The notes below the pieces were generated by a model. The model saw only the letters and a list, made by a program, of their open reading frames with translations, ran no database searches and was not told where the DNA came from. This document shows, in pieces, positions 1,647 to 43,238 of a DNA stretch of 52,734 nt. The position numbers were made by a program, and so were the translations under genes. The stretch lies in UHGV virus genome UHGV-0124967; one strand, given 5' to 3'. The DNA is from a virus. The number at the start of each line of letters is the position of its first letter. Within the stretch, counting starts at the first letter, position 1.

Positions 1647-1843
1647 CGCAATAACTCCGTTTTGTTAATTAACTAAACAATTCTACCATTTTGTGATCTG
1701 TGTTACACTTTGGGCTTATACATAATGTGTTTTTTGATCTATATCAACATACGAAATGATAGCTTCTGCGGTGATTTGCTCATCGGATGGGTGGATCATC
1801 ACGAACAACAAATGACAGTAAAACAAACAGTAAGGTGAATACA

Positions 1844-2089
1844 ATGAAAAAACTAATTGTTGCTTGCATCTTATCAGCTCTGTCTTTTGGTGCTTTTGCT
1901 TCTGTAAATTCGACAGATAAGAGTGATGCTGGCACTGCTCAATATGGTGATACTGGCCTTGATAACCAACGTTCGAGTTATTTCAATACTGACTCATGGA
2001 AAGAAAAACAACTACAAGGTAAAATTATTGACAGTGAATGTAATTTACCTATCCATTTTTCTGGTGTAAATGATGGGTGTAAAAAATAA
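1844..2089 (+). CDS. small secreted protein, 81 aa (tail-region moron), function unknown
   Basis: ATG at 1844 with AAGGTGA 8 nt upstream; MKKLIVACILSALSFGAFA looks like a cleavable signal peptide; two Cys in mature part; opposite strand to flanking tail genes. Confidence 0.55.
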   Translation: MKKLIVACILSALSFGAFASVNSTDKSDAGTAQYGDTGLDNQRSSYFNTDSWKEKQLQGKIIDSECNLPIHFSGVNDGCKK

Positions 2090-2100
2090 AAACAATGCAT

Positions 2101-2130
2101 AAAAAAAACGGGGCTTATGCCCCGTTTTTT
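2101..2130. terminator. bidirectional rho-independent terminator
   Basis: A8-CGGGGC-TTAT-GCCCCG-T6: perfect hairpin flanked by A-run and T-run; follows the plus-strand moron and overlaps the J stop codon. Confidence 0.75.
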
Positions 2131-5100
2131 ATGCTGTCGTTGATGTTCTAAATGATCCGGTGCCTCTTGCTACTATCATTGTTGGAGAATACAACGCGGT
2201 ACAATATGCGTATCCTTTAGATGATGATGTTTGAGGACAATATATTTTCCCGATAATATCTGATGCTTCTAAACCAGAAAAAGCGCATTGCACTGTTAAT
2301 GTGCATCCACCATAAGGCACGTAATATGAAATTGTTTTGTTTTTATCTCCGCAACTAAACGTTACGTTATAAATGGATCTATATTCACCAGACATTAATG
2401 AAATAGTCGCCATAAGCATAACTGATTTCGTCAATGCATTATCCGTGCTGTCTTTATATGTGATGGTTGCGCTATAACTTTCGTTATGCCCAAGCACTCG
2501 ATCTGGACCAACCCCCATGTTAGCAACGTCACCGACAAATGACTTTGCCTCTACTGTACCTTTAAACTTCCCGCTTGTGGCCTGAATCTCACCAGTGAAT
2601 TTACCAGATGTTGCGTACACCGTACCGCGTACAGTGACGTTGTTGAACTCCGCATTGCCGTTTTTATTTAGCATCCAGCCATCCGAACCAGCTTTATAGT
2701 TGGTTGACTGAATTTGCTGCGCAATCTTCGCGGTAGTGATTGATGCGTCTCTGATCCACGCATCACGGATGTAGCAAGCACCGTTAGTAACATAGAACGG
2801 GGTCTGATAGGAGCCACCTGCCGCAGTCATAAGCACGAAACTGTCAACGAGGAAAATACACCGCGATTGAACGTTAGTCCCGCTACCAGTAAGGCCGAGC
2901 GACATTCCTGTAGCGTATTTCATACCGTTTTTATCAGTGGCAATCTTAATTGAATATGACGCATCAACGTTACCTTTGAAGTCAGTCAGTGCTTTTGATG
3001 TCGTTTCTATCGCCGTTGTGTTTCCGTTAATAGTTACTTTCAACTGGTCGATTCTGGTTGACAATGCCTCGTCTGCCGTTGCCATAGCCTGTGACCATTC
3101 CGTGATGCTTGAGTTTACATCGTCGAAAGATGCCGAGATCTGGCCAAATTTTTCCGCGCTTGATGTTTCATGCGTAGAAAGTGCAGTTGACACTTCGGAT
3201 ACTTTCGAATTAATCGTACTGGTAAGCGATGAGTTAAGGCTGCTGATTGCGTCAGTGCGTGCATTCTTCTCATCTGCGATCGCTTTATCCATCCTAGTTA
3301 CGTTGCTTGTCACCTTGCTATCGAGCGTGGAAATTGACGCATTAACCCCGCTAATAGCTTCTGCGCGTGTGCTTGATTCGTCAGCGATAGCTTGATCAAG
3401 ACGGCTAACACTGGCATTTGTGTTATTTTCAAGCGTTGTTAAATCAGCTTTAACCTCTGTTATTGCGTCGCTTCTTGCCTGCGTTTCATCTGATATTGCC
3501 TTATCGAGGCGCTTAACACTGGCGTCAGTTTTCTTGTCAAGCGTTGAGATACTTGCGTTCACGTCGCTGATAGCCTGAGTACGCGCACTTGTTTCGTCTG
3601 CAATTGCCCGATCAAGACGGTTTACGCTGGCGTCAGTTTTCTTGTCAAGATTGCTTATTGAGGCATTTACACCGTTAATAGCTTCAGCGCGAGCGCTGGC
3701 CTCGTCAGCTACTGCGCGTTGCACATTAGAGATCTGACCTTTAAGGTTTGTGTCCATCACATTCATTTCTGCCGTGATGGTTTCCAGTGATTCCGCTGTC
3801 GCTTTTTTCTCTTCAGCGATAACGTTGTCAATGCGGTCAATTTCCGCTTTCGTCTCTGTCCTGCCTTTCTTGTACTGAGCGGTAAGAGTTACGCGAGTGT
3901 TAGTCTGTGCAAGCGAGTTATTAATAAGAGCAAGTGAGGCGTTTTGCAGACTTGCTTTTGCTTGCGCCAGTTCGCTGCCAACTTTTTCGCTAGACACCTC
4001 CAGCGAGTCGATTCTCGACTCATGCTGTCCAATATCATCGGAGTTTTCCTTAACTATTTTATAAAGATCTTCCGTTTCTTTTTTGAGCGTATCAGTATCA
4101 GCTTTTATTGATCCTGTTTCTATGGTTAGGTTGTCAGTAGCAGTTTTAAGGTCATTCGTAGCGCTTTCGATAAGATCAGTGCGGTCGCCTAGATCTTTAA
4201 TGTCACCAACCATTTCTTTAAATTGTTCGGAATTCATTACGTCTTTGGTGACGTAATCGGTAATTTCATCAAAGTTTTCTGTTGGCTTACCTGACGCTTC
4301 CACAAAGTCAGACACACCAAAAGCGTTACGCGCGCGCACATAAACGTAATATGTGTGACCTGTATTCATGCCGCCAAACGTCCACTGATGACCACGCCCG
4401 GTATATTGTGCTTTAGTGGTTATTGATGCCGGATCAGTGATCTGCGTTTCACCTGAGTAATAAAACTCGTAACTGGTATCAGTGGTGAGCATTGTTCTGC
4501 TGATCGGGTAAACTGTAGCCTGGAATACACCGGGAACCCAATTAACGCCAACTGGGGCCGCTGGTGCGCCAATAACCAGATCGACAATGCTTTCCGCACC
4601 CTTCATGCCCGTGTCATTTCTGCCACGAATGCCTAATGAGTAGTTGCCAGCATCAATGCCATAAAAATCATAACTGTAATTCGTGGTTTCGTAGCTTTTA
4701 ACTACAGCGCCTTCGGCGTTATACACGCGAATCTCAAAGGTCAGGCGACGCGTTGTCGTCTGTGTTTCCCATGTTGCGCGACATTGAACCGTTTCAGATC
4801 CAACGTTTAACACCTTCAGATTTTCAATGTTCGGCACGCGGAAGTGATTAAGCGTGTCGTTATTGATCTCGAAGATTGCGCCATTATCGACTTCGGCCTG
4901 CTTATGTGGATCATGCTGTGCGGCCTCGATGGTGTATACGCTGTTATTTTCTGTTTCTGCTACACTGGTGATTCGACATAAAACGGGTTTTGCTGCGTTG
5001 GTTGATACAGCAAAAACAGTGCCGTTACGAATCCACGCCGGGGCGGCTGCAAGGGTGATAATGTTCCCGTTAACTCCGATGATCTGGTGTTTTTTAAATT

Positions 5101-6682
5101 TACCATCGCTATCAAGTAAGCTGATGGTGTCGCCAGCCGCGATATATTCAGAATCAACCTTGTCGACCGTGATCGCTCTGCCATTGTTCGCCACGATGCG
5201 ACCGCCTAAACGAGCGCCTGCGCGATTATTATCGAGGATCTCGATTATATCCCCCGGCGTAAAGTGAATGGCGTCACGGGCCATTTTAAATGTGAATTTT
5301 GACGGCTCGCGTTTCGCTGTTTCGATCAGCCATTTACCAGCGCGGTGCGCTTGCCCGCGTGAAGTGCAACCGAACGCCTCCAACGTGGTTTCGTTATAAC
5401 CATCACGGGCGATTAGTTTATCATCTGCGACATATTCTTTTGATTGCTCCCAGCCGTTTTCAGGGTCAGTCCAGGATACGATCACGGCGTTGTAGCATTC
5501 TGCGCGTGCGATACTTGAACGAGTAAACGCGCCATCAACGACGTTTGCATTTGTGATGGTGGCGATTGGATCTTGTGGCGCATCAATCATCACGGTAAGA
5601 CGTTGTCCGTCCCATAACGCGATACCACGGAACATACCTGCGATGTTATCCAGTAGGTCGCGGGCGCTCATTTGCTCCGTAATGTAAGCGTTAAGCGTCA
5701 TGCGAGGTTCAAGGCCACCATAGCCATCATCAACCAACTGATCGCAGTATTGAGAAAGCACGTACAAAGCGCCATCATCAACATCAATGTAACCAGCATG
5801 TCGAGCAAGTCCAAAGCGCTCGTTTTTAACCAGATACCGGAAAAGCCATGCAGGGTTATTGGTATACGCCTTTTTAAATCCACCAAGCCATAAACCTGAA
5901 TATGTGCGCGTTTCAGGGTTGTAGTTGTCAGGCACATCAACAATCAGGCCGCGAAGGTGATAGGTGCGGGTAGGCGTATCAGTATACTGATCATGGTCAA
6001 TTACGGCGCCAGCTACAGCGGTATGAGGATAAGACAGATTATCATCTATTATTTCGCTGTAACTACTCCACCGCGTATCATTCCGCAATAGATCGCTGTT
6101 GCTGTCTGGTGTTGTGCGACGAACGCGAATATCAAACGGTTTTTCATCCGGCGCTTTAATGATGTGAGCTTCCAGGTATTCACCGCTTTGTTTACCAGGG
6201 CCAATGTGTATGTCTTTAATCGGCGACCACGTAGAAGATGATGACGGTTTAACATCAACCATCAACATGACGGATGTATTACATTGATTGCCCTTTTCAT
6301 CTGACTGAACGAGAGCATCAACACCAAGATTCAACCTGACGCGGGTAACGTTTGGATCTGAAACAGTCCTGATTATTGGTGTGTCGTGAGTTACCTTTGC
6401 GTTGACAATAACGGTTGACTCAATGGCGTTAAAACCATTAATCGGCGATTGGTCAGCCGTGCCGTTGCGCCAGGCTATACTAATCCCCGGAATTGATGTA
6501 TTCCCGTTTGCGTCAGTAACAGGAGTGTCATTAAGCATCACGTCATTCAATGGCGCTTTCTGGTTTACCGGACCGTATATCGGCCCTTCGCTGAGAATAT
6601 CTAAAACACGATAAAACTGTTTGTGATACAGGTTATCGTTCAATAATGTTGGTGTTTTGGCTTTGCCGCCGCCGCTACTCAT
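2129..6682 (-). CDS. J: tail tip / host specificity protein J, 1517 aa, with extended C-terminal region
   Basis: Very large ORF after tail assembly genes I/K/L; AGGAG RBS; N-terminal two-thirds reads like lambda J family; C-terminal third has coiled-coil repeats and a distal domain. Confidence 0.9.
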   Translation of the reverse strand: MSSGGGKAKTPTLLNDNLYHKQFYRVLDILSEGPIYGPVNQKAPLNDVMLNDTPVTDANGNTSIPGISIAWRNGTADQSPINGFNAIESTVIVNAKVTHDTPIIRTVSDPNVTRVRLNLGVDALVQSDEKGNQCNTSVMLMVDVKPSSSSTWSPIKDIHIGPGKQSGEYLEAHIIKAPDEKPFDIRVRRTTPDSNSDLLRNDTRWSSYSEIIDDNLSYPHTAVAGAVIDHDQYTDTPTRTYHLRGLIVDVPDNYNPETRTYSGLWLGGFKKAYTNNPAWLFRYLVKNERFGLARHAGYIDVDDGALYVLSQYCDQLVDDGYGGLEPRMTLNAYITEQMSARDLLDNIAGMFRGIALWDGQRLTVMIDAPQDPIATITNANVVDGAFTRSSIARAECYNAVIVSWTDPENGWEQSKEYVADDKLIARDGYNETTLEAFGCTSRGQAHRAGKWLIETAKREPSKFTFKMARDAIHFTPGDIIEILDNNRAGARLGGRIVANNGRAITVDKVDSEYIAAGDTISLLDSDGKFKKHQIIGVNGNIITLAAAPAWIRNGTVFAVSTNAAKPVLCRITSVAETENNSVYTIEAAQHDPHKQAEVDNGAIFEINNDTLNHFRVPNIENLKVLNVGSETVQCRATWETQTTTRRLTFEIRVYNAEGAVVKSYETTNYSYDFYGIDAGNYSLGIRGRNDTGMKGAESIVDLVIGAPAAPVGVNWVPGVFQATVYPISRTMLTTDTSYEFYYSGETQITDPASITTKAQYTGRGHQWTFGGMNTGHTYYVYVRARNAFGVSDFVEASGKPTENFDEITDYVTKDVMNSEQFKEMVGDIKDLGDRTDLIESATNDLKTATDNLTIETGSIKADTDTLKKETEDLYKIVKENSDDIGQHESRIDSLEVSSEKVGSELAQAKASLQNASLALINNSLAQTNTRVTLTAQYKKGRTETKAEIDRIDNVIAEEKKATAESLETITAEMNVMDTNLKGQISNVQRAVADEASARAEAINGVNASISNLDKKTDASVNRLDRAIADETSARTQAISDVNASISTLDKKTDASVKRLDKAISDETQARSDAITEVKADLTTLENNTNASVSRLDQAIADESSTRAEAISGVNASISTLDSKVTSNVTRMDKAIADEKNARTDAISSLNSSLTSTINSKVSEVSTALSTHETSSAEKFGQISASFDDVNSSITEWSQAMATADEALSTRIDQLKVTINGNTTAIETTSKALTDFKGNVDASYSIKIATDKNGMKYATGMSLGLTGSGTNVQSRCIFLVDSFVLMTAAGGSYQTPFYVTNGACYIRDAWIRDASITTAKIAQQIQSTNYKAGSDGWMLNKNGNAEFNNVTVRGTVYATSGKFTGEIQATSGKFKGTVEAKSFVGDVANMGVGPDRVLGHNESYSATITYKDSTDNALTKSVMLMATISLMSGEYRSIYNVTFSCGDKNKTISYYVPYGGCTLTVQCAFSGLEASDIIGKIYCPQTSSSKGYAYCTALYSPTMIVARGTGSFRTSTTA
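3200..3730 (-). repeat. about five tandem ~35-codon coiled-coil repeats inside J
   Basis: Protein repeats AIADETSARTQAISDVNASISTLDKKTDASVKRLDK and variants; the DNA repeats are visible by eye. Coordinates approximate. Confidence 0.6.
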
Positions 6683-8607: not shown

Positions 8608-8661
8608 TTTCTCACCTTGTCATTCTGTGATCTGCGTCACGCTAAATCATACCAAAATGGA

Positions 8662-8736: not shown

Positions 8737-8901
8737 ATGACTGAAAAGCTATGGAAGTTGACGGTATTCATGACAGACGGTAGGGAAAAGGTTATCGCCC
8801 TGTATGACGACGAGGGTGAAGCATTGGTTGACGCGCTTTTACTTGCTGAGGATGACCGCCTTTTGGGATACCAGATCGAACCTGTCAAATATGAGGGTTA
8901 G
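8737..8901 (+). CDS. hypothetical small acidic protein, 54 aa (moron)
   Basis: ATG 8737 with GGAGG 6 nt upstream; inside longer track ORF 8617..8901. Confidence 0.5.
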   Translation: MTEKLWKLTVFMTDGREKVIALYDDEGEALVDALLLAEDDRLLGYQIEPVKYEG

Positions 8902-8905
8902 CAAA

Positions 8906-9259
8906 ATGCAAAAGTATCGTCTTGATGTCTGGATGGCTGGTAGTGATGATTGGGAAGGTTACGGTTTGCATGACAGTTACGAAATGGCGGTCGAGGAAGG
9001 AGAAAAACTCGTTCGATTCTTCGGTCGCGCCAGAGAATTCAAAATTACTCCAGTACAAATACCGGATAAGGTGGAAGATATGAACCCGAAAGATATTAAT
9101 GGTAGCTTCACTGCTTATTATGCAGATTCTATGGACCAGTCTTGCCCTGGTGAAATACACGCAAAAGGTTTCCCGGCTGACGATCCAGAAGCAAAACGCG
9201 AATACGAAAAAGCGGCGAAAGATTTCTGTATCGATAACCTTTCAGCATTCGATAAATAA
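8906..9259 (+). CDS. hypothetical protein, 117 aa (moron)
   Basis: ATG 8906, 5 nt after previous stop, GAGGGT RBS; loosely resembles the preceding protein. Confidence 0.55.
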   Translation: MQKYRLDVWMAGSDDWEGYGLHDSYEMAVEEGEKLVRFFGRAREFKITPVQIPDKVEDMNPKDINGSFTAYYADSMDQSCPGEIHAKGFPADDPEAKREYEKAAKDFCIDNLSAFDK

Positions 9260-9268
9260 GGCGGCAAC

Positions 9269-9517
9269 ATGGGGCGGCGCAATTACGGTGATTATGTGTA
9301 CACGTTGAAACAGGCCGCCCGCCTCGTCGGTTATCATGAGCACGAATTTATTGATTTGATGATTGAGCGCGGGATACTGTACCAGGTCTGTTTAACGCTG
9401 TACCCAAAAGCGAAATACCTACAGGAAAAGTTATTCATCATCATGACAGATGAAAACCAGGTTAACCATTCATTCGTCACTGATAAGGGCGTTAATTATC
9501 TGCGTGATAACTTATAG
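9269..9517 (+). CDS. hypothetical protein, 82 aa (moron)
   Basis: ATG 9269 following previous gene; same strand and spacing. Confidence 0.5.
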   Translation: MGRRNYGDYVYTLKQAARLVGYHEHEFIDLMIERGILYQVCLTLYPKAKYLQEKLFIIMTDENQVNHSFVTDKGVNYLRDNL

Positions 9518-10224: not shown

Positions 10225-10285
10225 AAAACCCCCCCATAAGTTACATTTTGTATATATCTTTACGCGCTTCTACGCGAAAAATAAG

Positions 10286-10302: not shown

Positions 10303-10324
10303 TATAGCTAGTTTACAAAATGGC

Positions 10325-10393: not shown

Positions 10394-10549
10394 ATGAAAC
10401 GCTATGTAGTAGTAATGCTAAATAACGCATTCGAACAAGTGGAAATAGCAATCGTTAAGGGTTTCGACGACGCATTCAAATACGGTCAATTCATGATGAA
10501 TGCGAAAGAAGATGAATACCGGGACTTCTTCCTGAAGGCACTTAACTAA
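10394..10549 (+). CDS. hypothetical small protein, 51 aa (moron)
   Basis: ATG 10394 with AAGGAGG 6 nt upstream; below ORF-track cutoff. Confidence 0.45.
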   Translation: MKRYVVVMLNNAFEQVEIAIVKGFDDAFKYGQFMMNAKEDEYRDFFLKALN

Positions 10550-10566
10550 GGATGATGGGGTGAGTT

Positions 10567-10821
10567 ATGAAACTGGTAGCGATTGACAGAAATCTGAAAG
10601 CACAGAAAAACGCACATGACCGGATCATCAAGAAAGGTAAGGAATTACTTAAAGCCTTTCTGAGAAAAGAAGTTTACCCCAAAAAGTTACGCGACGGTTA
10701 CGGATACAAAATGGATATCAATCTTGATTGGAGGCTGTTTAGCGAAGATTTGAAGGTTTGGTTAATTGTTGAGCACCATGCCTATAACAAGTTATGTGGC
10801 GTGAAAGGCACTCATAAGTGA
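10567..10821 (+). CDS. hypothetical basic protein, 84 aa (moron)
   Basis: Track ORF; same strand directly downstream of 10394 gene. Confidence 0.5.
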   Translation: MKLVAIDRNLKAQKNAHDRIIKKGKELLKAFLRKEVYPKKLRDGYGYKMDINLDWRLFSEDLKVWLIVEHHAYNKLCGVKGTHK

Positions 10822-10874: not shown

Positions 10875-10913
10875 AAAAATAACCCCGGCATTGCACCGGG
10901 GTTTAGTTTATTT
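10875..10913. terminator. bidirectional rho-independent terminator
   Basis: CCCCGG-CATTGCA-CCGGGG hairpin (10883-10901) with A-run before and T-rich after; overlaps tape-measure stop. Confidence 0.65.
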
Positions 10914-13250
10914 GCGGCGAGGTTGCAACATTCCGCCTGGTCTTTGAGATTCCCTTGTTATCATTTTCATGGCTACACGTTCCATTGTTAATTCAAGTCT
11001 GCGGCTGTCTTCGTCGCTGAATCCGTTCGTGGTCTGAATGCTGATACTGACAGGCATACTAATACCGCCACCGCCGCCAATATCACGGCCCGGAATAACT
11101 CTGCCGTTCTCGCCAGGAATCATATATTGATTCCCGTTAGATGTCTGGAATAGCTCCGGCCTGTTGTGTTCCCCTACACGGTACATATTGCCACCAATGA
11201 CGCTACCACCATTAAAGCGACCGCCGCCAAAAATTGACGTAGCCAGCGACATGATCGCAGTGAGTGCCGCAGAACCAGCCGCCGCCCATGCGCCGCCAGT
11301 TGACGCCGCTGTTGCCGCCGCCGCCGGGGCCGCCGCCGCAGCAATCTGGCCTTGCGCCGCTACCGCGCCCGCCGTGGTACTTGCCTGAGTCGCTTTGCTT
11401 TGCGTTTCCATCATGATCTGATCTGCTATCCAGTTTGCAGCTATGTCTGAAAGCCTGTTACCGATATTCCCGAGGATATTGCTGCCTAAGTTAGCAAAAA
11501 CATCACTCAATGATTGAGTACCATTTAACAGGCCAACAAGTGCATTGCTCATACCACCTTTAAGGCCATTAACGCAATCACCGATAAGGCTGTTTGTGTC
11601 GCTTTGCGCCTGCCATTGCTCCCACTTCAGATCGCGGATCTGTTGCTCATAGGCTAACAGTTCCTGTTTCTGTTGCGCTTCCGTCACGCCCAGGTCGATA
11701 AGCATTTGCTTACGGACGGCCCATTCATTTTGAACCTGCTGAATAGGGTCTACTTCGCCCTTTAGCTGATCCATCGGGCTTACTATTTGCTCCCATTTGT
11801 CGCGCAATTCCTCTACCGGAATTTGTGCTAATTCTTCCTTTAGTTCCTTACCTATCCCTTTTTGCGCGGCGCGGTACTCAAGGAGAGTGATTTTACCCTG
11901 GGCGAATGCAGCATCAATGGCCTTGCCGCTCTCTAACGCTTTGCGCATAGCGGCGGCGTCTTTGTTGTACTGGTCAGAAACGCTTATACCTTTATCGCCA
12001 AGACGATCAGCTTCAGATTTCTTCTCTTTTTTCTGTTTTTTCGGTTTGTCTACTGGCTTGCCGGATCCGGTAATCGCTCCGTCATTGGCGGCATTCTGTT
12101 CATTTTTCCTTGCTTCTTCTGTAGCCTGGATTGCTGCGGTCAGATCATCCTGTAGTTGCATGACCTTGCCAACGGTCTTACCGTATTTCTTCTCGTAGTT
12201 GCTGTTATATTCGTCGGTTTGCTCTCCTACGACCTCCTTCATCCATTTGTAGGCATCCATTAGTGCCTTGATTGGCGTCACCATTGCGATGATCTTCTCG
12301 GCTACCTCGCCAGCCTTGATTCTGACATCTTCAAACATGTCGATGAATTCGCCACCAGCCGTCTTCAGGGTGTTAAAGCAGGTTTTAGCGAAATCAGCGC
12401 CTTCACTTAAAGCCTTAACACCTTTCGTTACAAGATCGATACCAGCAACAACCGTATCGGATACACCGAAAAGATCATCCAATTGCTCAACAAGTCCCAT
12501 AACCTCGACTTTAAGCTCATTCAGGGCCATGCCGGATGTGCGCGGCAACTGCGCAAACTTCTCGTTTGTTTCCTGCGTAGCCGCCTGGATTGCGTTAACC
12601 ATCCTTTCTGCCGTGATCTTACCGTCCAGCATTTCGGCGCGGAATTGGCCCATTGATAACCCCATCTGGCGTGCCATTGTCTGTACGATGGTCGGGGTGT
12701 TTTCTAACAGGCTGTTGAATTCTTCAGCACGCAACACGCCACCGTCGATAGACTGACGGAATTGACGCATTGAGTTTGACATCTGCTCCGCTGACGCGCC
12801 GCCCAACGCCCCCATTTTCTGAATCGTACCTACCAGGTTAAGCAATTGCCCTTCAGTGGCGGACGTGTTCTTCAGTGAGATAGCTAAGCCTTGCCACAGA
12901 TCCCCGGTATCCTTCATGCTTTGGCCTGTTTCTTTTGATATTGCTTTCAGGCCATCAAAAACCCGTCCGGCGGACTCCGCATCGCCCGTAAGCATTTTGA
13001 TTTTTACGCGAAGCATTTTTGCTTGCTCCGCCATATCCATAAATTGACGCACGGCCTCCGCAGCAATTAGCAAATGGATAACCCTGGTCAGTGCCTTGAT
13101 GGATGTTTTCAGGGTGTTTACCTGGCGGTCAGCCTGTTTTGCGCCGCGCTCTATACGCCCAAAGGCCTGGTCTGCCTGTCGTTGTGCAACGAGAAGTTGA
13201 CCAGTTTTCGCATCAACTTCGTAATAAATTGTACCTACACTGGTAGCCAT
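10908..13250 (-). CDS. H: tail tape measure protein
   Basis: 780 aa; alpha-helical Ala/Gln-rich body, Gly-rich C-terminus; between chaperone and M. Confidence 0.85.
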   Translation of the reverse strand: MATSVGTIYYEVDAKTGQLLVAQRQADQAFGRIERGAKQADRQVNTLKTSIKALTRVIHLLIAAEAVRQFMDMAEQAKMLRVKIKMLTGDAESAGRVFDGLKAISKETGQSMKDTGDLWQGLAISLKNTSATEGQLLNLVGTIQKMGALGGASAEQMSNSMRQFRQSIDGGVLRAEEFNSLLENTPTIVQTMARQMGLSMGQFRAEMLDGKITAERMVNAIQAATQETNEKFAQLPRTSGMALNELKVEVMGLVEQLDDLFGVSDTVVAGIDLVTKGVKALSEGADFAKTCFNTLKTAGGEFIDMFEDVRIKAGEVAEKIIAMVTPIKALMDAYKWMKEVVGEQTDEYNSNYEKKYGKTVGKVMQLQDDLTAAIQATEEARKNEQNAANDGAITGSGKPVDKPKKQKKEKKSEADRLGDKGISVSDQYNKDAAAMRKALESGKAIDAAFAQGKITLLEYRAAQKGIGKELKEELAQIPVEELRDKWEQIVSPMDQLKGEVDPIQQVQNEWAVRKQMLIDLGVTEAQQKQELLAYEQQIRDLKWEQWQAQSDTNSLIGDCVNGLKGGMSNALVGLLNGTQSLSDVFANLGSNILGNIGNRLSDIAANWIADQIMMETQSKATQASTTAGAVAAQGQIAAAAAPAAAATAASTGGAWAAAGSAALTAIMSLATSIFGGGRFNGGSVIGGNMYRVGEHNRPELFQTSNGNQYMIPGENGRVIPGRDIGGGGGISMPVSISIQTTNGFSDEDSRRLELTMERVAMKMITRESQRPGGMLQPRRK

Positions 13251-13303
13251 GATTTAACCTCATGCAAAAATGTGATCTGTGTATCTATTTTATACAAAAT
13301 GGC

Positions 13304-13332
13304 TTTACTTCAACGACTACATTTTGTATAAA
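13304..13332 (+). promoter_or_regulatory. putative promoter for lipoprotein moron
   Basis: TTTACT (13304-13309), 17 bp, TG-n-TATAAA (13324-13332); partner inverted copy at 13291-13302 faces tape measure. Confidence 0.45.
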
Positions 13333-13377
13333 GAAGCCAAAGGGAATGGTCAGTAAATCAAGTTAGCGAGGTGGGTT

Positions 13378-14037
13378 ATGAAACGGTTAGCAAAAGTGGC
13401 AATGATTGCGGCGGTATTGGGTCTGGTTGGTTGCAATGAGGATAATGAAAAAGCGCCTATAGTGACCACTCAAGAACAACAAGCATTAGCAGAGAAAAAT
13501 GCTAAATGGCTTGCAGAACAACAAGCAAAACAAGCCGCATATGAGGCACAGTTAGCAAAAGAAAAAGCTGGTAAACAGTGGCTTGTGGTCGAAAGAAAAG
13601 ATGATATGCAGGACACAAAAAACGTGTTCCTTTTCGTGAAAGCAGAACATTTCAGCGGAAGTCTTGATGCTTTCCCTACACTGAAAGCACGGGATGAAAA
13701 CAAACCTGTATTAACAATCGCTTGCCAGGGTAATAAAACAAAAATGTTCGTAGCATGGTCAAACCATGTAACTGACGCTGGGGACACTACTTATATTAAC
13801 TACCGGATCGGCGATCACAAAGCTGTAGCTACTGAATGGAGTCGGTCAACTAACTATAAAGCTCTTGGATTATGGAACGGCAAAAAAGCCATTCCAATGA
13901 TTAAAAAACTGGTTAACGAAAAACAATTTATCATTGAAGTAGTGCCGGAAGCTGGCGACATTGAGAAAGCAGTGTTTAACATTGATGGTCTTTATAACCA
14001 CATCGACAAAGTGAAAAACGCTTGCAACTGGAATTAA
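13378..14037 (+). CDS. lipoprotein, 219 aa (tail-region moron), function unknown
   Basis: ATG 13378 with GAGGTGG RBS; signal peptide with lipobox LVGC; coiled-coil-like segment; AT-rich compared with neighbours. Confidence 0.7.
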   Translation: MKRLAKVAMIAAVLGLVGCNEDNEKAPIVTTQEQQALAEKNAKWLAEQQAKQAAYEAQLAKEKAGKQWLVVERKDDMQDTKNVFLFVKAEHFSGSLDAFPTLKARDENKPVLTIACQGNKTKMFVAWSNHVTDAGDTTYINYRIGDHKAVATEWSRSTNYKALGLWNGKKAIPMIKKLVNEKQFIIEVVPEAGDIEKAVFNIDGLYNHIDKVKNACNWN

Positions 14038-14046
14038 GGGTGAAAC

Positions 14047-14367
14047 ATGAAACGCGATGAATGGATGAGAAAATGGGAACATAAACAAGTAGCATATAAT
14101 CGCAAGATGAACCGCGAATTTGACTTCGGTGTCGCAGAGCGTGATTGTGGGTATAAAGGAAATCTAAATGGTGCATATGTTCAACATGTTGGCGATAAAC
14201 AGTATTATTACATTGTCAACTTCAACCATGTATTGCACGCAGATCTGGTTGTTATTGATGGGAAAACAAAAATAGTAGCGAATAAACGCATTAATAAGAA
14301 CGCAGCAATCAATATATTAACAGTGATTCGCACCCAGATGAATGTGCTTTACGAAAAAATAGCATAA
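14047..14367 (+). CDS. hypothetical protein, 106 aa, co-transcribed with lipoprotein
   Basis: ATG 14047, 7 nt after lipoprotein stop, AAGGGTGA RBS. Confidence 0.55.
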   Translation: MKRDEWMRKWEHKQVAYNRKMNREFDFGVAERDCGYKGNLNGAYVQHVGDKQYYYIVNFNHVLHADLVVIDGKTKIVANKRINKNAAINILTVIRTQMNVLYEKIA

Positions 14368-14380
14368 GCGAACTTAACAA

Positions 14381-14409
14381 AAACGCCCGGATCTACCGGG
14401 CTTTTTCTT
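14381..14409. terminator. bidirectional rho-independent terminator
   Basis: GCCCGG-ATCTA-CCGGGC followed by T5CTT; the minus-strand chaperone stop sits in the loop. Confidence 0.65.
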
Positions 14410-15070
14410 GCTCGCGATTTTTCATTCTTTTTAGTATCTCCATAGCACCATTCATTCCATCGTCATAAGCCTTTTTATCCAGCAATACATTTGGGCGTTT
14501 TTGTTTGTTTCTTGCTTCTGGCGGCGTTTTAGCGCGTACAGCGGCCCTATATCCGGTCATTGTCATATTCCATGCTTCTGATTCTGATAACCCCAGGTGA
14601 GCTACGGCAGAATAAACGAATTCCAGCACGTTAAAAGTCGGCTTATATTCCCCTTCCCGGATCTCTCCGGCGTCTTCTTCTGGCCCGTCACCGATTAAAC
14701 CGTGGTACATGCAATGTTGTGCCAGCGTGATAACGTCACTGGTCGGCATCAGTCCGGGTTTTAGTCGTAACTTGGCGGAAGAAGTTAACCTACATTCACC
14801 CAATAACGGGGCTATTTCGTCGTCTGAGCAACATTTCAGGATGCGCATTGACGTTTGTACTATCTCACCATAACACCGCGCCATAATGCGATTGCGGAGG
14901 TCTGGATCTGCAGGCAATCGTGATGGGTATTTGCTGCCGTGGATAAGTGCGAAATATTCGACAAGCTCACTATCGTTGCCGATTTTAGCCATCGCAGCAA
15001 AGCAAGGATTAAACTCATAGCGCTTACCGTTCACCACGGCAGCAAATTGTCCTGTACGAACATGGATCAT
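14393..15070 (-). CDS. putative tail assembly chaperone (lambda G/GT position)
   Basis: 225 aa from first ATG (15070, AAGGTGA RBS); track ORF starts at a GTG at 15079. Called by position between major tail and tape measure only. Confidence 0.45.
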   Translation of the reverse strand: MIHVRTGQFAAVVNGKRYEFNPCFAAMAKIGNDSELVEYFALIHGSKYPSRLPADPDLRNRIMARCYGEIVQTSMRILKCCSDDEIAPLLGECRLTSSAKLRLKPGLMPTSDVITLAQHCMYHGLIGDGPEEDAGEIREGEYKPTFNVLEFVYSAVAHLGLSESEAWNMTMTGYRAAVRAKTPPEARNKQKRPNVLLDKKAYDDGMNGAMEILKRMKNREQEKAR

Positions 15071-15082
15071 AGTATTCACCTT

Positions 15083-15125: not shown

Positions 15126-15602
15126 TTATGCTGGCGGAACGTCGCCTACCGTTACCTTGCCAGCGCTTTCGCACTCAATAGACCAGGTGGAAACATCATC
15201 ATGCGGATCTTCTTCTTTAAAGGAAGCGCAAAGGAATGGGCCTTCAGTTACGTCTACAGGAGAAACGATCTTCAGCCATACATAAGGTTGTGATCCGGTG
15301 GTTTCATCTGGCGTAATTACGTGGCGTTTCAGCGCTTTCTGATTATGGATTTCTTCAGTGCGGGACACACCGTCGCCGGAGAAAGAAACGGATTTGTAAG
15401 TAACCATTGATTCTTTCGTGTAATCGGCTGATTTATCGGCGGTGGCGTCAGCGGTTTCCCATTCAACGGAAAGTGTTTTACCACGCATCATGCCTAACGC
15501 TTTGTACGCTCCATCTTCCGGCTTCGCATTTGGACAAGCGATAGCGAAGAATACAGCAACGTCACGGCCTGTAAACGTGCCTTTTTCGCAAGTCTGAGAC
15601 AT
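15126..15602 (-). CDS. major tail protein
   Basis: 158 aa, AGAGGT RBS, followed by attenuator hairpin; position after neck genes. Confidence 0.65.
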   Translation of the reverse strand: MSQTCEKGTFTGRDVAVFFAIACPNAKPEDGAYKALGMMRGKTLSVEWETADATADKSADYTKESMVTYKSVSFSGDGVSRTEEIHNQKALKRHVITPDETTGSQPYVWLKIVSPVDVTEGPFLCASFKEEDPHDDVSTWSIECESAGKVTVGDVPPA

Positions 15603-20286: not shown

Positions 20287-21231
20287 TTACTCCCAATCTT
20301 CGCCATATTTAGCGTGCGCAACTTTATAGTTTTCTTGCGCCCGATCTAATATTCGTTCGTTTAATATGTTACCGTCTTCGTCAACTAATACGGTAATCGT
20401 GCTACATTTGCAGTTAATTGAATTAGGGGATCTACTCCACCATTCGCGCTGCTCATCTATGGTGTATGTTTTACCGTGCCGCTGCGCGTGCGATAGCCTG
20501 GTAGTCGGTGATAATGCCGAAATGTGCATTTGCATAGTGCGCAGATTAAATTCTTCTGTCGCCGCTTCTGCCTCATCCATACGCGCTGTGCGTAACGCTG
20601 TGCATATTTCAGTTCGGGCAATACGTTTGCACCTGTATAGCGGTAACCGCGTCTCCTGATTCAATGTGCGCGCTATTTCCAGTGGATTTAAACCGCGTGC
20701 CATACCTTCGGTTAATCTTCTTGCCATATCCTTTTTGATCTGTGCGGTCAGCCCGCGCATTTCCTCAAATACACGGGTACGTACCAGGGCAAGGCGGGTG
20801 CGGTAAGTTGTGCTTGATAACACGGCAGATACATCAGGGTAGGCGCTTGAGTACGTGACAGACTGGTTAGCGAGGTTGGCATATTCCTGTGCCGTGCCGC
20901 GCTGATAGGCCACCTTCACGTAATTCTGCCAGAACCAGAAGTTTTCCGGGTCTGTTAACTCGAATATCTCATCAATCATGTCGCTTGCGTCCTCCAGCAT
21001 GTCGTGAAATTCATCCATGTAAATCTGAAAGGTGTATTTCTTATTAACAGCCAGGCTATATTGGATTCTGTCCAATATGGCGATATATGGATCGGCTACT
21101 TTTTTCAGGCAGGATTTGAAACGCTTAATAGCACCAGACCTTAACTTCCCTGTCATGGTCGGGTCTTCGGTGTTAGATGGCATTATCGCGGCTGGAGGTA
21201 TTCGCCTGATTATCTTCTTCACTTTCATCAT
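20287..21231 (-). CDS. head morphogenesis protein (Mu F / SPP1 gp7-like)
   Basis: 314 aa downstream of portal; start ambiguous (21231, or 21183 which reduces overlap with portal). Confidence 0.7.
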   Translation of the reverse strand: MMKVKKIIRRIPPAAIMPSNTEDPTMTGKLRSGAIKRFKSCLKKVADPYIAILDRIQYSLAVNKKYTFQIYMDEFHDMLEDASDMIDEIFELTDPENFWFWQNYVKVAYQRGTAQEYANLANQSVTYSSAYPDVSAVLSSTTYRTRLALVRTRVFEEMRGLTAQIKKDMARRLTEGMARGLNPLEIARTLNQETRLPLYRCKRIARTEICTALRTARMDEAEAATEEFNLRTMQMHISALSPTTRLSHAQRHGKTYTIDEQREWWSRSPNSINCKCSTITVLVDEDGNILNERILDRAQENYKVAHAKYGEDWE

Positions 21232-22543
21232 CGTTTTCCTCTTCCAGTTCTACCTCACTAGCCGGGCCATTATATCCGGCAGCTTCGCGGATCTCGTCAC
21301 CGCTGAATATTTCCTCACCAGTAGCGAGACATGCCTGATTGATTTGTGCCATTTTGTATGCCGCGTCGAGTAGCTCTGCTTTTGTCATGGCGTTAAGGTC
21401 GTCCCACAGTACAGATACGTCTACTGGCATACTGATAAGGCGGAGATCTGCCATCTTGAGGAATAGCTCCTCAAGCTCGCCTCCTATTTCCTCACGGCGG
21501 GTCATGCAGCGGTTATTGAAGTAGCGGAGGTCTTCGGTTGATGCGCGTTCGCCCTGCTGATTCCCAACCAGGATACGCGTTGGAATATCGATACCAGCGG
21601 CTGCGGTTTGCAGGTTGACGTCATAGGTAGCGGAAGGATCTGCTACGGCAGTAACCAGCGGGCTAACGGTAGCTCCCTGTAATGCCATCATCACATCATT
21701 ACCTTTATTTATATCCTCTGCCGCTTCATTGAATTTTTCGCGTAGCTCTGTAACGTCGCAACCGTATGTTGCAGCCAGAGAACGGAAATCAATTTCTTTA
21801 TCGAACGAGATAGCCAGTTGACGTGCTGCGTTTTTCAGGAATGATTCACCGCTGCCGCCTTCCACTTTCTCCAGCGAAACGAATGCGTTATAGGACGGTT
21901 CAAGGAAGGCGATGGCATCATCAGAATAGTCGCCAAAGATAAATATGCGATCGGGATGTATCTTTCTTGCTATGGCCTTACTGTTAATGCGCTCCTTGTA
22001 TTCCCACCATGTCGGCAGGCCATAGTTTTCATTATCCGGGTTTTCTTCGAAGTCCTTCGGTGTAAGAGCACCAGCCCATACAGGGGTAAATTTGGCAATG
22101 CCTACACCTTTTGTTACTGGCTGATCCCACGGCTTGTTATCCCTGACGTGAATTAACAGTCCAGCATAACGACCGATGAGGCGGCGGCGATCGCATTCAG
22201 CTATGACGCGCCAGAAACGATTATCAAATTGTTTTTTGATTTCTCTTTCCCACGATGTTTCATTTTCCGCTTTCTCGTCTTCCGTACCTTCAATCAGCGT
22301 TGGCCTGGTGCGCCAGCACGTAGTAATGATCTTCTCAATAGCACCGTGAGCGATACCACCGCGACGATACAGTTTGTATAAATCGGCATAGGTGATTTCT
22401 TCTTTGAATCCGTATTCACTCCACGCAGCATCACGTTTTGCATCAATACCCATTGAGAATGGGTTAGCAGCTGCATAGCGGGCAAAGGCCGCCTGGCGTT
22501 GAGACAAGGCAGCATTAACCGCCAATTCTAAATTGGATGGCAT
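21173..22543 (-). CDS. portal protein
   Basis: ATG 22543 with AGGAG RBS (track ORF starts 22564); acidic C-terminus; between TerL and head morphogenesis gene. Confidence 0.7.
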   Translation of the reverse strand: MPSNLELAVNAALSQRQAAFARYAAANPFSMGIDAKRDAAWSEYGFKEEITYADLYKLYRRGGIAHGAIEKIITTCWRTRPTLIEGTEDEKAENETSWEREIKKQFDNRFWRVIAECDRRRLIGRYAGLLIHVRDNKPWDQPVTKGVGIAKFTPVWAGALTPKDFEENPDNENYGLPTWWEYKERINSKAIARKIHPDRIFIFGDYSDDAIAFLEPSYNAFVSLEKVEGGSGESFLKNAARQLAISFDKEIDFRSLAATYGCDVTELREKFNEAAEDINKGNDVMMALQGATVSPLVTAVADPSATYDVNLQTAAAGIDIPTRILVGNQQGERASTEDLRYFNNRCMTRREEIGGELEELFLKMADLRLISMPVDVSVLWDDLNAMTKAELLDAAYKMAQINQACLATGEEIFSGDEIREAAGYNGPASEVELEEENDDESEEDNQANTSSRDNAI

Positions 22544-22691
22544 AATGTTTACTCCTGAATACATGTTTACGCGTTGCTACGCGAAAAATAGAAAAACTTG
22601 TGGGGGATTGTGAGACAGATTTTATGTAGCCAATTGAGAATTATTCTTGTTCATCTTCGAAAATTTTTCGAAGTTGATAATAATCAATAAC

Positions 22692-28257: not shown

Positions 28258-28536
28258 TTATGCCATGCGTGCAAATTCAAGTGATTTGCATTCGTAGTCT
28301 TCCTCTGCCTGTTCGATGACTGCCATCATCATTTCGTTTGCGTTGTTGAATGCGTTGCTTTGTGCGAACTTGTCGGCTCCACCTTCTTCTTCGAACTCCG
28401 CGTTGTTTGCTGCAATGTAGTGATATTCGATGTTGTTCAGGTAAGGGCTTGCAGCGTGTGCTGGGTCTTCTTTCTCCACCATCTCCCAAAATGCGTTTAA
28501 GCGAGATTCGACTTCTTTGTTAATCCAGCGTTTCAT
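28258..28536 (-). CDS. hypothetical acidic protein, 92 aa
   Basis: GGAGGG RBS; preceded by 98-bp intergenic region with inverted repeat and CRP-like site. Confidence 0.5.
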   Translation of the reverse strand: MKRWINKEVESRLNAFWEMVEKEDPAHAASPYLNNIEYHYIAANNAEFEEEGGADKFAQSNAFNNANEMMMAVIEQAEEDYECKSLEFARMA

Positions 28537-28617
28537 TTTTCTACCCTCCGCATCGTTCTCTCTTCAGCTTCTTTATAACAAAATGGCACTGCCGAAACAA
28601 TGCCATTTCGTAAACCT

Positions 28618-28633
28618 TGTGATACAGATCACA
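28618..28633. promoter_or_regulatory. CRP-consensus-like palindrome TGTGA-N6-TCACA
   Basis: TGTGATACAGATCACA; adjacent to inverted repeat AAATGGCA...TGCCATTT (28582-28608). Confidence 0.35.
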
Positions 28634-28634
28634 T

Positions 28635-28859
28635 TTACGTTTCTTCCGTAAAAGTAACCTTCATCGCCCCATCCGAACTACGGACAACATAACGACCAAT
28701 ACCGCCTAGCGGCCCTGCATACCATAAGTGACCGTAAGTGTCAGTCACGACGATAAACGGAAATTTAGGAGACAATCCCATCGGTTTTTCAGCCGTATAC
28801 TGTGCGCCTTCTTCAAAACAGCCTAATTTCGATTCGTTACACGTTAAAATCATTTTCAT
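28635..28859 (-). CDS. small protein, paralogue family member A (74 aa)
   Basis: Shares F..G.IY...D..G.LW.F-type pattern with the next three genes. Confidence 0.55.
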   Translation of the reverse strand: MKMILTCNESKLGCFEEGAQYTAEKPMGLSPKFPFIVVTDTYGHLWYAGPLGGIGRYVVRSSDGAMKVTFTEET

Positions 28860-34595: not shown

Positions 34596-34754
34596 AATGC
34601 TCCCTCCCTTTAAGGTGATTTCTACGCATTTCAGCGCTGCCGGATTTTTAAAGAGCATTTCGTTTGCTTGAAGTATACAAAATGGATACACGTAAACAAG
34701 ACGAAAAGCGCCATTATGTGACCTGTATCACACAATGACGCCATTTTGTAAACT

Positions 34755-37906: not shown

Positions 37907-38322
37907 GCCTCACCTCATATGGTATTCAATAAACCACCTAATAAACAGGCATAAGGCAATAAAACACCAGCAACAGCACATATAAAACAATGTGTCGTCC
38001 ATAATTAAGCCTCAATAACACCATAATCAAACGTGCCTAAATACTGTTCGATACTTACAACCTCAATACCATCAATGCACCGTTTCTACACAGACACCCT
38101 GCTTTCATTTTCCCGGAAGTGCATATTAGAAAGCACTTCATCGGCTGGATAGCCTTTCCCAGCGACGTAGGCATCGAGACCTACTCCACCCTCAACACAA
38201 TAAAGCATTAATTCGCTGGCCATCTTGTTTTCCTCCGCGCCGTAAACCTTTTGATTTCAGTTCACAAAACGGATTCGCGATCACAACACAAAATGTATTT
38301 TTATGTGATCGCCATCACTATG

Positions 38323-42003: not shown

Positions 42004-42465
42004 AATCTGATCTCCGTATATCCTTGATAAAAATTAATAAAAATCATCTTCGTTAATTGCCGCACTTCCAGCGGCTGACCAGATTGTTAATGAGCGGCTT
42101 AACATCTTTCAACTAATCCCGCAATCATCGCCGTTCCCGGCGTGACCTTGCTCACTCCAAGCAAGCTGACTCGTCGCCTTGCGTGCGGTTTCGTGGGGGA
42201 TGTAACGCTTTAAACACCCCATGCGCCTTGTTATCAGTGCCGCTTTCGGTCCCCCATCGGGGAGTTACTCCACGGTTGACAAGGTGTTAAGCCTGATTTT
42301 TAAAGTGCCAGGAAGTTGCTTTTGTTACCTGCGACCTTCCTTTGACTCGCAATATACGCCCCGTAAAACATCGAGTCAATCCATTTTGTATACTTTTTTA
42401 AAATATTTTATATGCTATTGATATTTAAACAATAAATAACGTTTTCTGTTTACGTTTTGGCGTTT

Positions 42466-43150: not shown

Positions 43151-43210
43151 GTCGCTACCCTATAACCTCAAAAAAGTTTGATGCAAGTCACAAAACGTGT
43201 ATTTTAAGCC

Positions 43211-43238
43211 TTGATCTTAAAATTCCATTTTGTAAACT
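43211..43238 (+). promoter_or_regulatory. putative rightward early promoter (pR-like)
   Basis: TTGATC (43211-43216), 16 bp, TG-n-TAAACT (43231-43238); followed by palindromes. Confidence 0.45.

Follow-up and report, generated by a model that had tools for sequence, protein, structure and literature searches.

A predicted lipoprotein of the VasI family in a hypervariable cargo slot of the tail module of mEpimmI prophages

The virus genome UHGV-0124967 (52,734 nt; the whole stretch analysed here is called the window) carries at positions 13251–14409 a two-gene cassette on the plus strand, which is inserted within the tail genes between the tape measure gene and the gene for a DUF6246 protein, both encoded on the minus strand. 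The first gene of the cassette (13378–14037(+), 219 aa, start MKRLAKVAMIAAVLGLVGC) encodes a predicted lipoprotein with the lipobox LVGC, and the second (14047–14367(+)) encodes a 106-aa protein after a gap of 9 nt; a bidirectional terminator follows. All these elements had been described in an initial annotation of the DNA and are indeed present, while the named family of the lipoprotein, VasI/TagO, had been missed. Judged by its sequence, the locus is a phage cargo lipoprotein gene belonging to the known VasI family. The window itself represents an mEpimmI (mEp021-group) prophage and is 99.8% identical over this stretch to the chromosome of Escherichia coli M1/5, where the prophage adjoins ttcA and zntB. 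Its nearest phages are MagusPhagus and the mEp021 group, which was described in 2025 as the mEpimmI family, with the M1/5 prophage among its 38 prophages (PMC11893012).

The family assignment of the lipoprotein is based on a match to the Pfam VasI domain PF11319 (E=1.7e-16; 60.8 bits, the gathering score being 26.5), in which residues 55–218 cover positions 25–184 of the 184-position model. It also matches phrog_1848 (E=4e-58), a group whose function is unannotated. The protein falls far below the NCBIfam equivalog of TagO/VasI, TIGR03360, scoring 47.3 bits against a cut-off of 124.2, and PGAP names the M1/5 copy of the gene (L003 20128–20787) TagO, "T6SS-associated", that is, linked to type VI secretion systems (T6SS). 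No match was found among PDB sequences.

The N-terminus displays all sequence hallmarks of a signal peptidase II substrate, as which the protein is predicted to serve. The signal peptide (13378–13434(+)) consists of the n-region MKRLAK, a hydrophobic core, and the lipobox L-V-G-C ending at Cys19; the protein start MKRLAKVAMIAAVLGLVG-C19 thus combines a basic n-region and a hydrophobic core with the pattern [LVI][ASTVI][GAS]C placed 15–25 residues from the start, and residues G15, L16, G18, and C19 are invariant across 13 homologues. Since the residue at +2 is Asn and not Asp, the established +2 rule predicts Lol-dependent sorting of the protein to the inner leaflet of the outer membrane. In the AlphaFold2 model (mean predicted local distance difference test, pLDDT, 75.7), a disordered tether (residues 1–27) is followed by one long helix and a β-sandwich. 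The helix, residues 31–63 (33 residues; 13468–13566(+); pLDDT 77–88), would keep the globular domain at a distance from the lipid anchor, while the β-sandwich VasI domain (residues 69–215; 13582–14022(+)) is accompanied by the conserved Cys116 and Cys216 and resembles IalB in a fold match (PDB 3dtd).

The gene is under purifying selection: pairwise ratios of non-synonymous to synonymous substitution (dN/dS) are 0.13–0.26 at a dS of about 0.13 among 11 alleles. There are few close homologues; they form 14 clusters at 90% identity out of 5.8 billion, and all 17 viral contigs and all genome hits examined that carry them are mEpimmI prophages. They all occupy the same phage slot, with one exception that lies beside it. 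A profile search with the lipoprotein alignment did not reach distant VasI proteins, and a scan of genome contigs was likewise empty. Such distant VasI-domain genes (27–34% identity) exist as cargo in other temperate phages, namely P2-like phages of Escherichia, Klebsiella, and Citrobacter, Pasteurella phages, and the Brucella phage BiPBO1. In both P2-like contexts inspected, Escherichia 500465-2 and Klebsiella 3LV2017, the gene lies at the prophage edge, and in a Labrenzia phage it stands beside cI in the same orientation. Besides the VasI protein, the window encodes just one lipoprotein, the o-spanin.

The 106-aa protein is an ORFan: basic (isoelectric point 9.6), hydrophilic, and devoid of a signal peptide, it has no match in Pfam, PHROG, NCBIfam, PADLOC, or PDB. 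Its model is poor (pLDDT 65.6), with insignificant fold matches. A word-index search for homologues returned 3 clusters, while a full HMMER search of 1.84 billion representatives gave only the protein's own cluster and P0018, a 4834-aa glycine-rich tandem repeat whose E-value of 6e-39 is the sum of 46 weak repeats. P0018 was rejected as a homologue; it is probably a wrong-frame translation, and as a compositional false positive it gives a warning about multi-domain E-values in general. The 106-aa gene, too, is under purifying selection (dN/dS 0.26 at dS 0.61), so that, from the dN/dS values, both open reading frames (ORFs) of the cassette are real genes. The protein had initially been regarded as a partner of the lipoprotein, a view that does not hold. 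In most relatives, a BamE-like lipoprotein gene stands in its place, and the 106-aa gene also occurs without the VasI lipoprotein, beside an unrelated 160-aa exported protein; because of the latter, it is not a dedicated partner and appears to be a separate cytoplasmic cargo merely riding on the lipoprotein transcript.

Between the start of the tape measure gene and the cargo gene lies a divergent control region of 127 bp (13251–13377). In an alignment, nine relatives retain its left 90 bp regardless of the cargo. The block TCTATTTTATACAAAATGGCTT.ACT..A.CGA...C.TTTTGTATA, where dots stand for variable positions, does not vary among the nine. The same is true of an inverted repeat with 13-nt arms TTTATACAAAATG, which are 100% complementary and separated by an 18-nt spacer. 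The left arm occupies 13289–13301(+) and the right arm 13320–13332(−), where the plus strand reads CATTTTGTATAAA and includes a candidate −10 element, TATAAA. The inverted motif pair noticed in the initial annotation is therefore confirmed as a perfect 13-nt repeat, but the 10-mer TACAAAATGG is exact in the left arm only, the right arm having TACAAAATGt. Folded as RNA, the repeat could form a hairpin of −12.8 kcal/mol (z=−2.66), whose arms never vary; an Rfam scan of 13100–14500 revealed no RNA family.

A promoter-like element had also been proposed here. By eye, a candidate σ70 promoter can be recognized at 13304–13332(+), with the −35 element TTTACT (13304–13309), a 17-nt spacer (N17), and the −10 element TATAAA (13327–13332), and it falls within the conserved block; however, a consensus σ70 scan of 13251–13377 returned no promoter, because the −10 element lacks the final T. 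The same layout recurs at 10314 (TTCACA-N17-TATATA) and at a paralogous block at 28604(−). Upstream, at 13271–13286, the sequence TGTGATCTGTGTATCT reads as a CRP-like half palindrome with 2 mismatches to TGTGA-N6-TCACA; it is centred some 60 bp upstream of the point where plus-strand transcription is inferred to start, and it may act as a CRP-type control site. A Shine–Dalgarno sequence, GAGGTGGG, is found at 13368–13375(+). At the other end of the cassette, an intrinsic terminator (14385–14401; stem GCCCGG/CCGGGC with T runs), scored on both strands, lies at the convergent junction with the DUF6246 gene. The cassette would thus have a transcript of its own, separate from that of the late operon and starting in the conserved promoter block with the inverted repeat.

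The flanking genes define the position of the cassette. The left one, at 10908–13250(−), matches the tape measure family TMP_3 in Pfam (E=1.2e-48) and phrog_1538 (E=1.6e-155), and the right one, at 14393–15079(−), matches PF19759 (DUF6246; E=7e-54). The latter follows the tube gene (15126–15602), so that it lies between tube and tape measure and is placed where a tail assembly chaperone would be encoded. The chaperone flank of the initial annotation thus agrees with the gene order, while the role itself is assigned to DUF6246 from position only. The cassette was correctly noted to be richer in AT than the tail genes, its GC content (13251–14409) being 0.393 (39%) in comparison with 0.507 for the tape measure gene, 0.472 for the DUF6246 gene, and 0.479 for the head-to-tube genes (47–51% in the flanks). 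Together with its own terminator and its presence or absence among related phages, this deviant composition supports the view that the cassette is a moron, i.e., lysogenic-conversion cargo in the tail module. The idea of an inserted lipoprotein cargo is thereby upheld by the moron anatomy as well as by the lipoprotein hallmarks. The lipoprotein has no homology to a structural tail component, and the gene found in the same slot of mEp021 is not annotated as a virion structural protein, while its neighbours are.

A survey of this slot, for which 36 fetched loci were searched by tblastn with nine marker proteins, has shown that it is a hypervariable cargo site of mEpimmI prophages, with at least six cargo combinations, nearly all of which include exported proteins. 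The VasI lipoprotein is combined with the 106-aa protein in the window and 7 loci, is combined with a 124-aa BamE/SmpA-like lipoprotein in 12 loci, and stands alone, as a 61%-identical variant, in 2 loci. In 3 loci, a 160-aa Sec-exported protein is followed by the 106-aa protein and the BamE-like lipoprotein; mEp013 has a 59-aa membrane protein with the BamE-like lipoprotein; and mEp021, mEp010, MagusPhagus, and LSU61 have a 29-aa ORF and then a 138-aa Sec-exported protein. The BamE/SmpA-like lipoprotein shows weak matches to Pfam BamE and DUF7738. The unrelated exported proteins encoded by the first genes of the slot begin alike, with MKRLAKVA or MKRLIKAA (window 13378–13440; L014 3482–3550; L001 3729–3790; L004 3703–3765). 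Such a common start in front of unrelated mature domains suggests that the junctions of cassette exchange are placed within the signal-peptide coding region. In a distant relative whose lipoprotein is 53% identical (L013 3166–5144), the tape measure and DUF6246 genes are adjacent, and the VasI gene, followed by different small genes, lies across DUF6246 from the usual slot; hence, cargo has moved between slots.

The repeat is not a peculiarity of this locus. Its core, the 9-mer TACAAAATG, has an expected count of 0.92 in the window but is present in 14 exact copies, a number reached in none of 100 shuffles. The copies are situated at 10244(−), 10314(+), 10705(+), 13293(+), 13320(−), 21350(−), 34676(+), 34742(−), 41704(−), 42382(−), 43226(−), 45685(+), 46825(−), and 49751(−); at least 11 of them are intergenic, often as inverted pairs. 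Further inverted pairs are formed at 34676/34742 and, with one mismatch per arm, at 28577/28604, while the copies at 10244/10314 are arranged back-to-back. Four syntenic copies are present within the first 20 kb of mEp021. The copy at 42382 abuts the −35 element of the early promoter, and that at 43226 is 76 nt upstream of the repressor gene. Copies flanking the repressor gene might point to a CI operator, but this reading was not adopted, since 14 dispersed copies do not fit it; a separate palindrome, TTGACTCG...CGAGTCAA, overlaps the early promoter. Nor did the consensus sequences of the E. coli regulators TyrR, OmpR, CpxR, PhoP, IHF, or LexA fit, and the literature searched offered nothing relevant on the motif. 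One in-frame copy lies within a gene of the portal/minor-head region (21173–22564(−); L003 27864–29237) that bears the M1/5 annotation "anti-CBASS protein Acb1 family protein".

CRP-like palindromes TGTGA-N6-TCACA are also enriched: six are found in the window (1692–1707, 8626–8641, 28618–28633, 34717–34732, 38304–38319, and 43177–43192) against 1.5 expected, two of them perfect, and only 1 of 100 shuffles was as high. Several have a TACAAAATG copy no more than about 30 bp away, and opposite-strand cargo genes or the repressor gene are preceded by at least four of these sites. A paralogue of the slot promoter block at 28560–28640(−) bears a perfect CRP-like site, TACGAAATGG, a spacer, and then CCATTTTGTTATAAAGAAGC; it drives a 92-aa gene (28258–28536(−)) in a small-gene array upstream of the lysis cassette.

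Besides the slot of the VasI lipoprotein, the tail module has three more slots with cargo on the opposite strand, at 1844–2089(+), 8804–9517(+), and 10394–10821(+). In all four, TACAAAATG or a one-mismatch variant lies in the divergent region that separates the cargo gene from the point at which the structural genes resume. In the window, the slot after the tail tip gene J encodes an 81-aa Sec-exported protein that is not a lipoprotein, while mEp021 and mEp010 carry there their tested exclusion lipoproteins. Another slot contains a 151-aa ORF and a KilAC antirepressor-like gene, and another one contains a 51-aa gene with a ParE-like toxin gene, which looks like a toxin–antitoxin pair. The J gene itself (2129–6682(−)) codes for 1517 aa in the window and 1656 aa in M1/5 (L003 8470–13440); this length polymorphism resides in the repeat-rich C-terminal half, and the flanks of the two copies are more than 99% identical.

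What might such a lipoprotein do? The reading we favour, as a possible rather than an established one, is by analogy that of an envelope barrier expressed by the lysogen against incoming phage, in the form of superinfection exclusion or defence; superinfection exclusion had been suggested for the gene from the outset and is plausible. The protein would be anchored at the inner leaflet of the outer membrane, and the helix of about 5 nm would hold the IalB/VasI-type β-sandwich with its conserved cysteine pair in the periplasm. There, the VasI domain might disturb either an outer-membrane receptor, at its periplasmic face, or the ejection conduit formed by the tape measure and tail-tip proteins, so that adsorbed phages would fail at DNA delivery.

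Several lines of evidence are consistent with an envelope barrier. The cassette has the anatomy of a moron (opposite strand, low GC content, conserved upstream block, bidirectional terminator), the lipoprotein features are invariant in a gene under purifying selection, and unrelated temperate phages, too, have genes with a VasI domain among their cargo. The swapping of unrelated exported proteins in one slot is typical of genes engaged in phage–phage conflict. Moreover, mEpimmI phages have been shown by experiment to exclude superinfecting phages by means of small lipoproteins: Lpp021 acts against mEp021 and mEp515, which depend on OmpA, and Lpp010 against lambda and three of four LamB-dependent mEp phages (PMC11893012). 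The window prophage has no Lpp-type lipoprotein in its post-J slot. Finally, SDIC4B, a defence-island protein with a VasI-like fold, is sufficient alone to give 10–200-fold protection against coliphages in E. coli (bioRxiv 10.1101/2024.01.28.577318).

Other observations weigh against such a barrier. For this lipoprotein and its close homologues, an exclusion role is proposed by analogy. In sequence, the protein is not significantly similar to SDIC4B, BLASTP showed no similarity to the mature portions of the Lpp proteins that were tested for exclusion, and PADLOC gave no match; the tested exclusion genes of the phage family occupy another slot, downstream of J. The Pfam VasI family is defined by genes of T6SS clusters of unknown function (PMC13584744), which leaves some room for a T6SS-related role. 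Expression in the lysogen is itself inferred, the promoter being non-canonical and absent from the output of the consensus scan. The lipoprotein is associated with one J-tip type in 8 of the 9 complete genomes having that tip, but it occurs with other tips too; this association was not used as evidence because shared ancestry explains it as well as function does.

The alternative that survives best, though we regard it as unlikely, is conversion of host fitness or virulence, in which the lipoprotein would alter the envelope with respect to adhesion/invasion, serum resistance, or outer-membrane homeostasis, like Bor and Lom of lambda. The IalB fold match, the BamE/SmpA-like lipoprotein as alternative cargo of the slot (with its weak BamE and DUF7738 matches), and the origin of the hosts, which are mostly human or animal gut or bloodstream isolates, speak in its favour. 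However, the molecular function of IalB is itself unknown, the identity of the lipoprotein to it is only 9%, and no virulence family was matched in Pfam or NCBIfam; the rapid swap of unrelated exported proteins also fits phage–phage conflict better than a fixed trait of host adaptation.

A role related to the T6SS is more improbable still. According to this explanation, the prophage VasI/TagO protein modulates the T6SS of the host or shields the periplasm of the lysogen from attack by neighbours. The whole-domain Pfam match above the gathering score and the PGAP name TagO agree with it, as does the length of 219 aa, equal to that encoded by vasI of Vibrio fluvialis (660 bp). Among T6SS immunity proteins, periplasmic lipoproteins are frequent, and chromosomal T6SS tagO/vasI genes occur in E. 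coli strains, so a cognate machine may exist in the hosts. On the other hand, VasI is an accessory gene and no known immunity family, and the score of 47 bits is far from the TIGR03360 cut-off of 124. Furthermore, the gene lies in a phage tail module with no T6SS genes nearby (the 41-kb annotated context in M1/5 contains solely phage and housekeeping genes), and the close homologues in the 17 viral contigs and the genome hits are all in mEpimmI prophages. A 2026 review of the accessory factors of the T6SS (PMC13584744) lists even TagO as a protein of unknown function, and the T6SS explanation is therefore left without a mechanism behind it.

A function in the lytic cycle, by which the lipoprotein would assist the phage itself in assembling its tail, ejecting DNA, or lysing the cell, is hardly credible and largely refuted: the gene does lie between the tape measure and putative chaperone genes, where the late transcript must cross it in antisense, but it is on the opposite strand and closed by a terminator, has no homology to structural proteins, is absent or replaced in the viable phages mEp021, mEp010, mEp013, and MagusPhagus, and has as its counterpart in the mEp021 slot a gene that, unlike its neighbours, is not annotated as encoding a virion protein.

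If the lipoprotein does exclude phages as an envelope barrier, this would be the first phenotype for the VasI/TagO family, would link the family to the VasI-like defence protein SDIC4B, and would reveal an envelope-level defence gene beyond the reach of current defence-finders, which miss it because it has no PADLOC match. A more far-reaching proposal, which we consider doubtful, is that exported VasI-fold proteins, both phage lipoproteins and soluble defence-island forms, might constitute one widespread periplasmic anti-phage class blocking genome delivery after adsorption, with VasI/TagO of the T6SS as a relative that handles a phage-tail-like needle, and with the cassette and the other tail-module slots controlled via the phage-wide 9-bp element TACAAAATG and a regulator that would recognize it. 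If the function is ordinary or absent, the locus is one more moron. The label "T6SS-associated" that PGAP attaches to this prophage cargo gene points to a systematic annotation problem and is likely to mislead T6SS surveys. The slot, for its part, amounts to a small natural collection of exported proteins, exchanged behind a single conserved promoter and a common signal-peptide start, and is a good place for finding new exclusion factors.

Among known systems, VasI/TagO of the T6SS (PF11319; TIGR03360; V. cholerae VCA0118) shares with the lipoprotein the whole Pfam domain, the approximate length, and export, but the window protein is prophage cargo located outside a T6SS cluster and below the equivalog cut-off. 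The fold relative IalB (invasion-associated locus B, PDB 3dtd), with its 9% identity to the lipoprotein and no Pfam IalB match at E≤0.1, is a chromosomal alphaproteobacterial protein, unlike the prophage-borne one described here.

SDIC4B from defence islands of Serratia and Enterobacteria carries, like the lipoprotein, an export signal and is encoded outside T6SS clusters; the preprint describes its fold as VasI-like. Two cysteines are similarly spaced (51→150, 99 residues, in SDIC4B; 116→216, 100 residues, in the lipoprotein), and the motifs CxGN and LGxWxNGxxA are in register in the two proteins, which is no more than suggestive. Direct comparison of the two sequences gave an hhalign probability of 0.14%, a local alignment with z=1.4 (44 of 500 shuffles were as good), and a BLASTP E-value of 0.65. 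The coding sequence of SDIC4B, taken from the plasmid table of the preprint, specifies a Sec signal peptide and no helical spacer, whereas the window protein has a lipoprotein signal and a helix. SDIC4A and the subtype II components have signal peptides as well, one of the latter being a lipoprotein, and these export signals mark SDIC4 as an envelope system. SDIC4B resides with BrxR in chromosomal islands and the lipoprotein in a phage tail module, where no BrxR-like or SDIC4A-like gene was found in the slot and the 106-aa protein gave no BLASTP match to SDIC4A at E≤10.

Cor and Llp-type lipoproteins are known to be receptor-blocking. Closest in genomic setting are the mEpimmI exclusion lipoproteins of types A and C, Lpp021 and Lpp010 (PMC11893012), which, like the VasI lipoprotein, are opposite-strand tail-module cargo of the outer-membrane type in the same phage family. 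They are, however, small proteins of 72–82 aa encoded in the slot downstream of J, in contrast to the 219-aa protein of the tape measure/DUF6246 slot, and Lpp010 aligns with the latter over residues 1–26 only, i.e., over the signal peptide, the mature sequences being unrelated. Finally, lambdoid morons (gp15 of HK97, bor and lom of lambda) resemble the cassette as independent units between structural genes, with deviant composition, presence or absence among relatives, and an envelope protein as the product. What sets the cassette apart from them is its location between a chaperone-position gene and the tape measure gene, as one of four TACAAAATG-associated opposite-strand slots.

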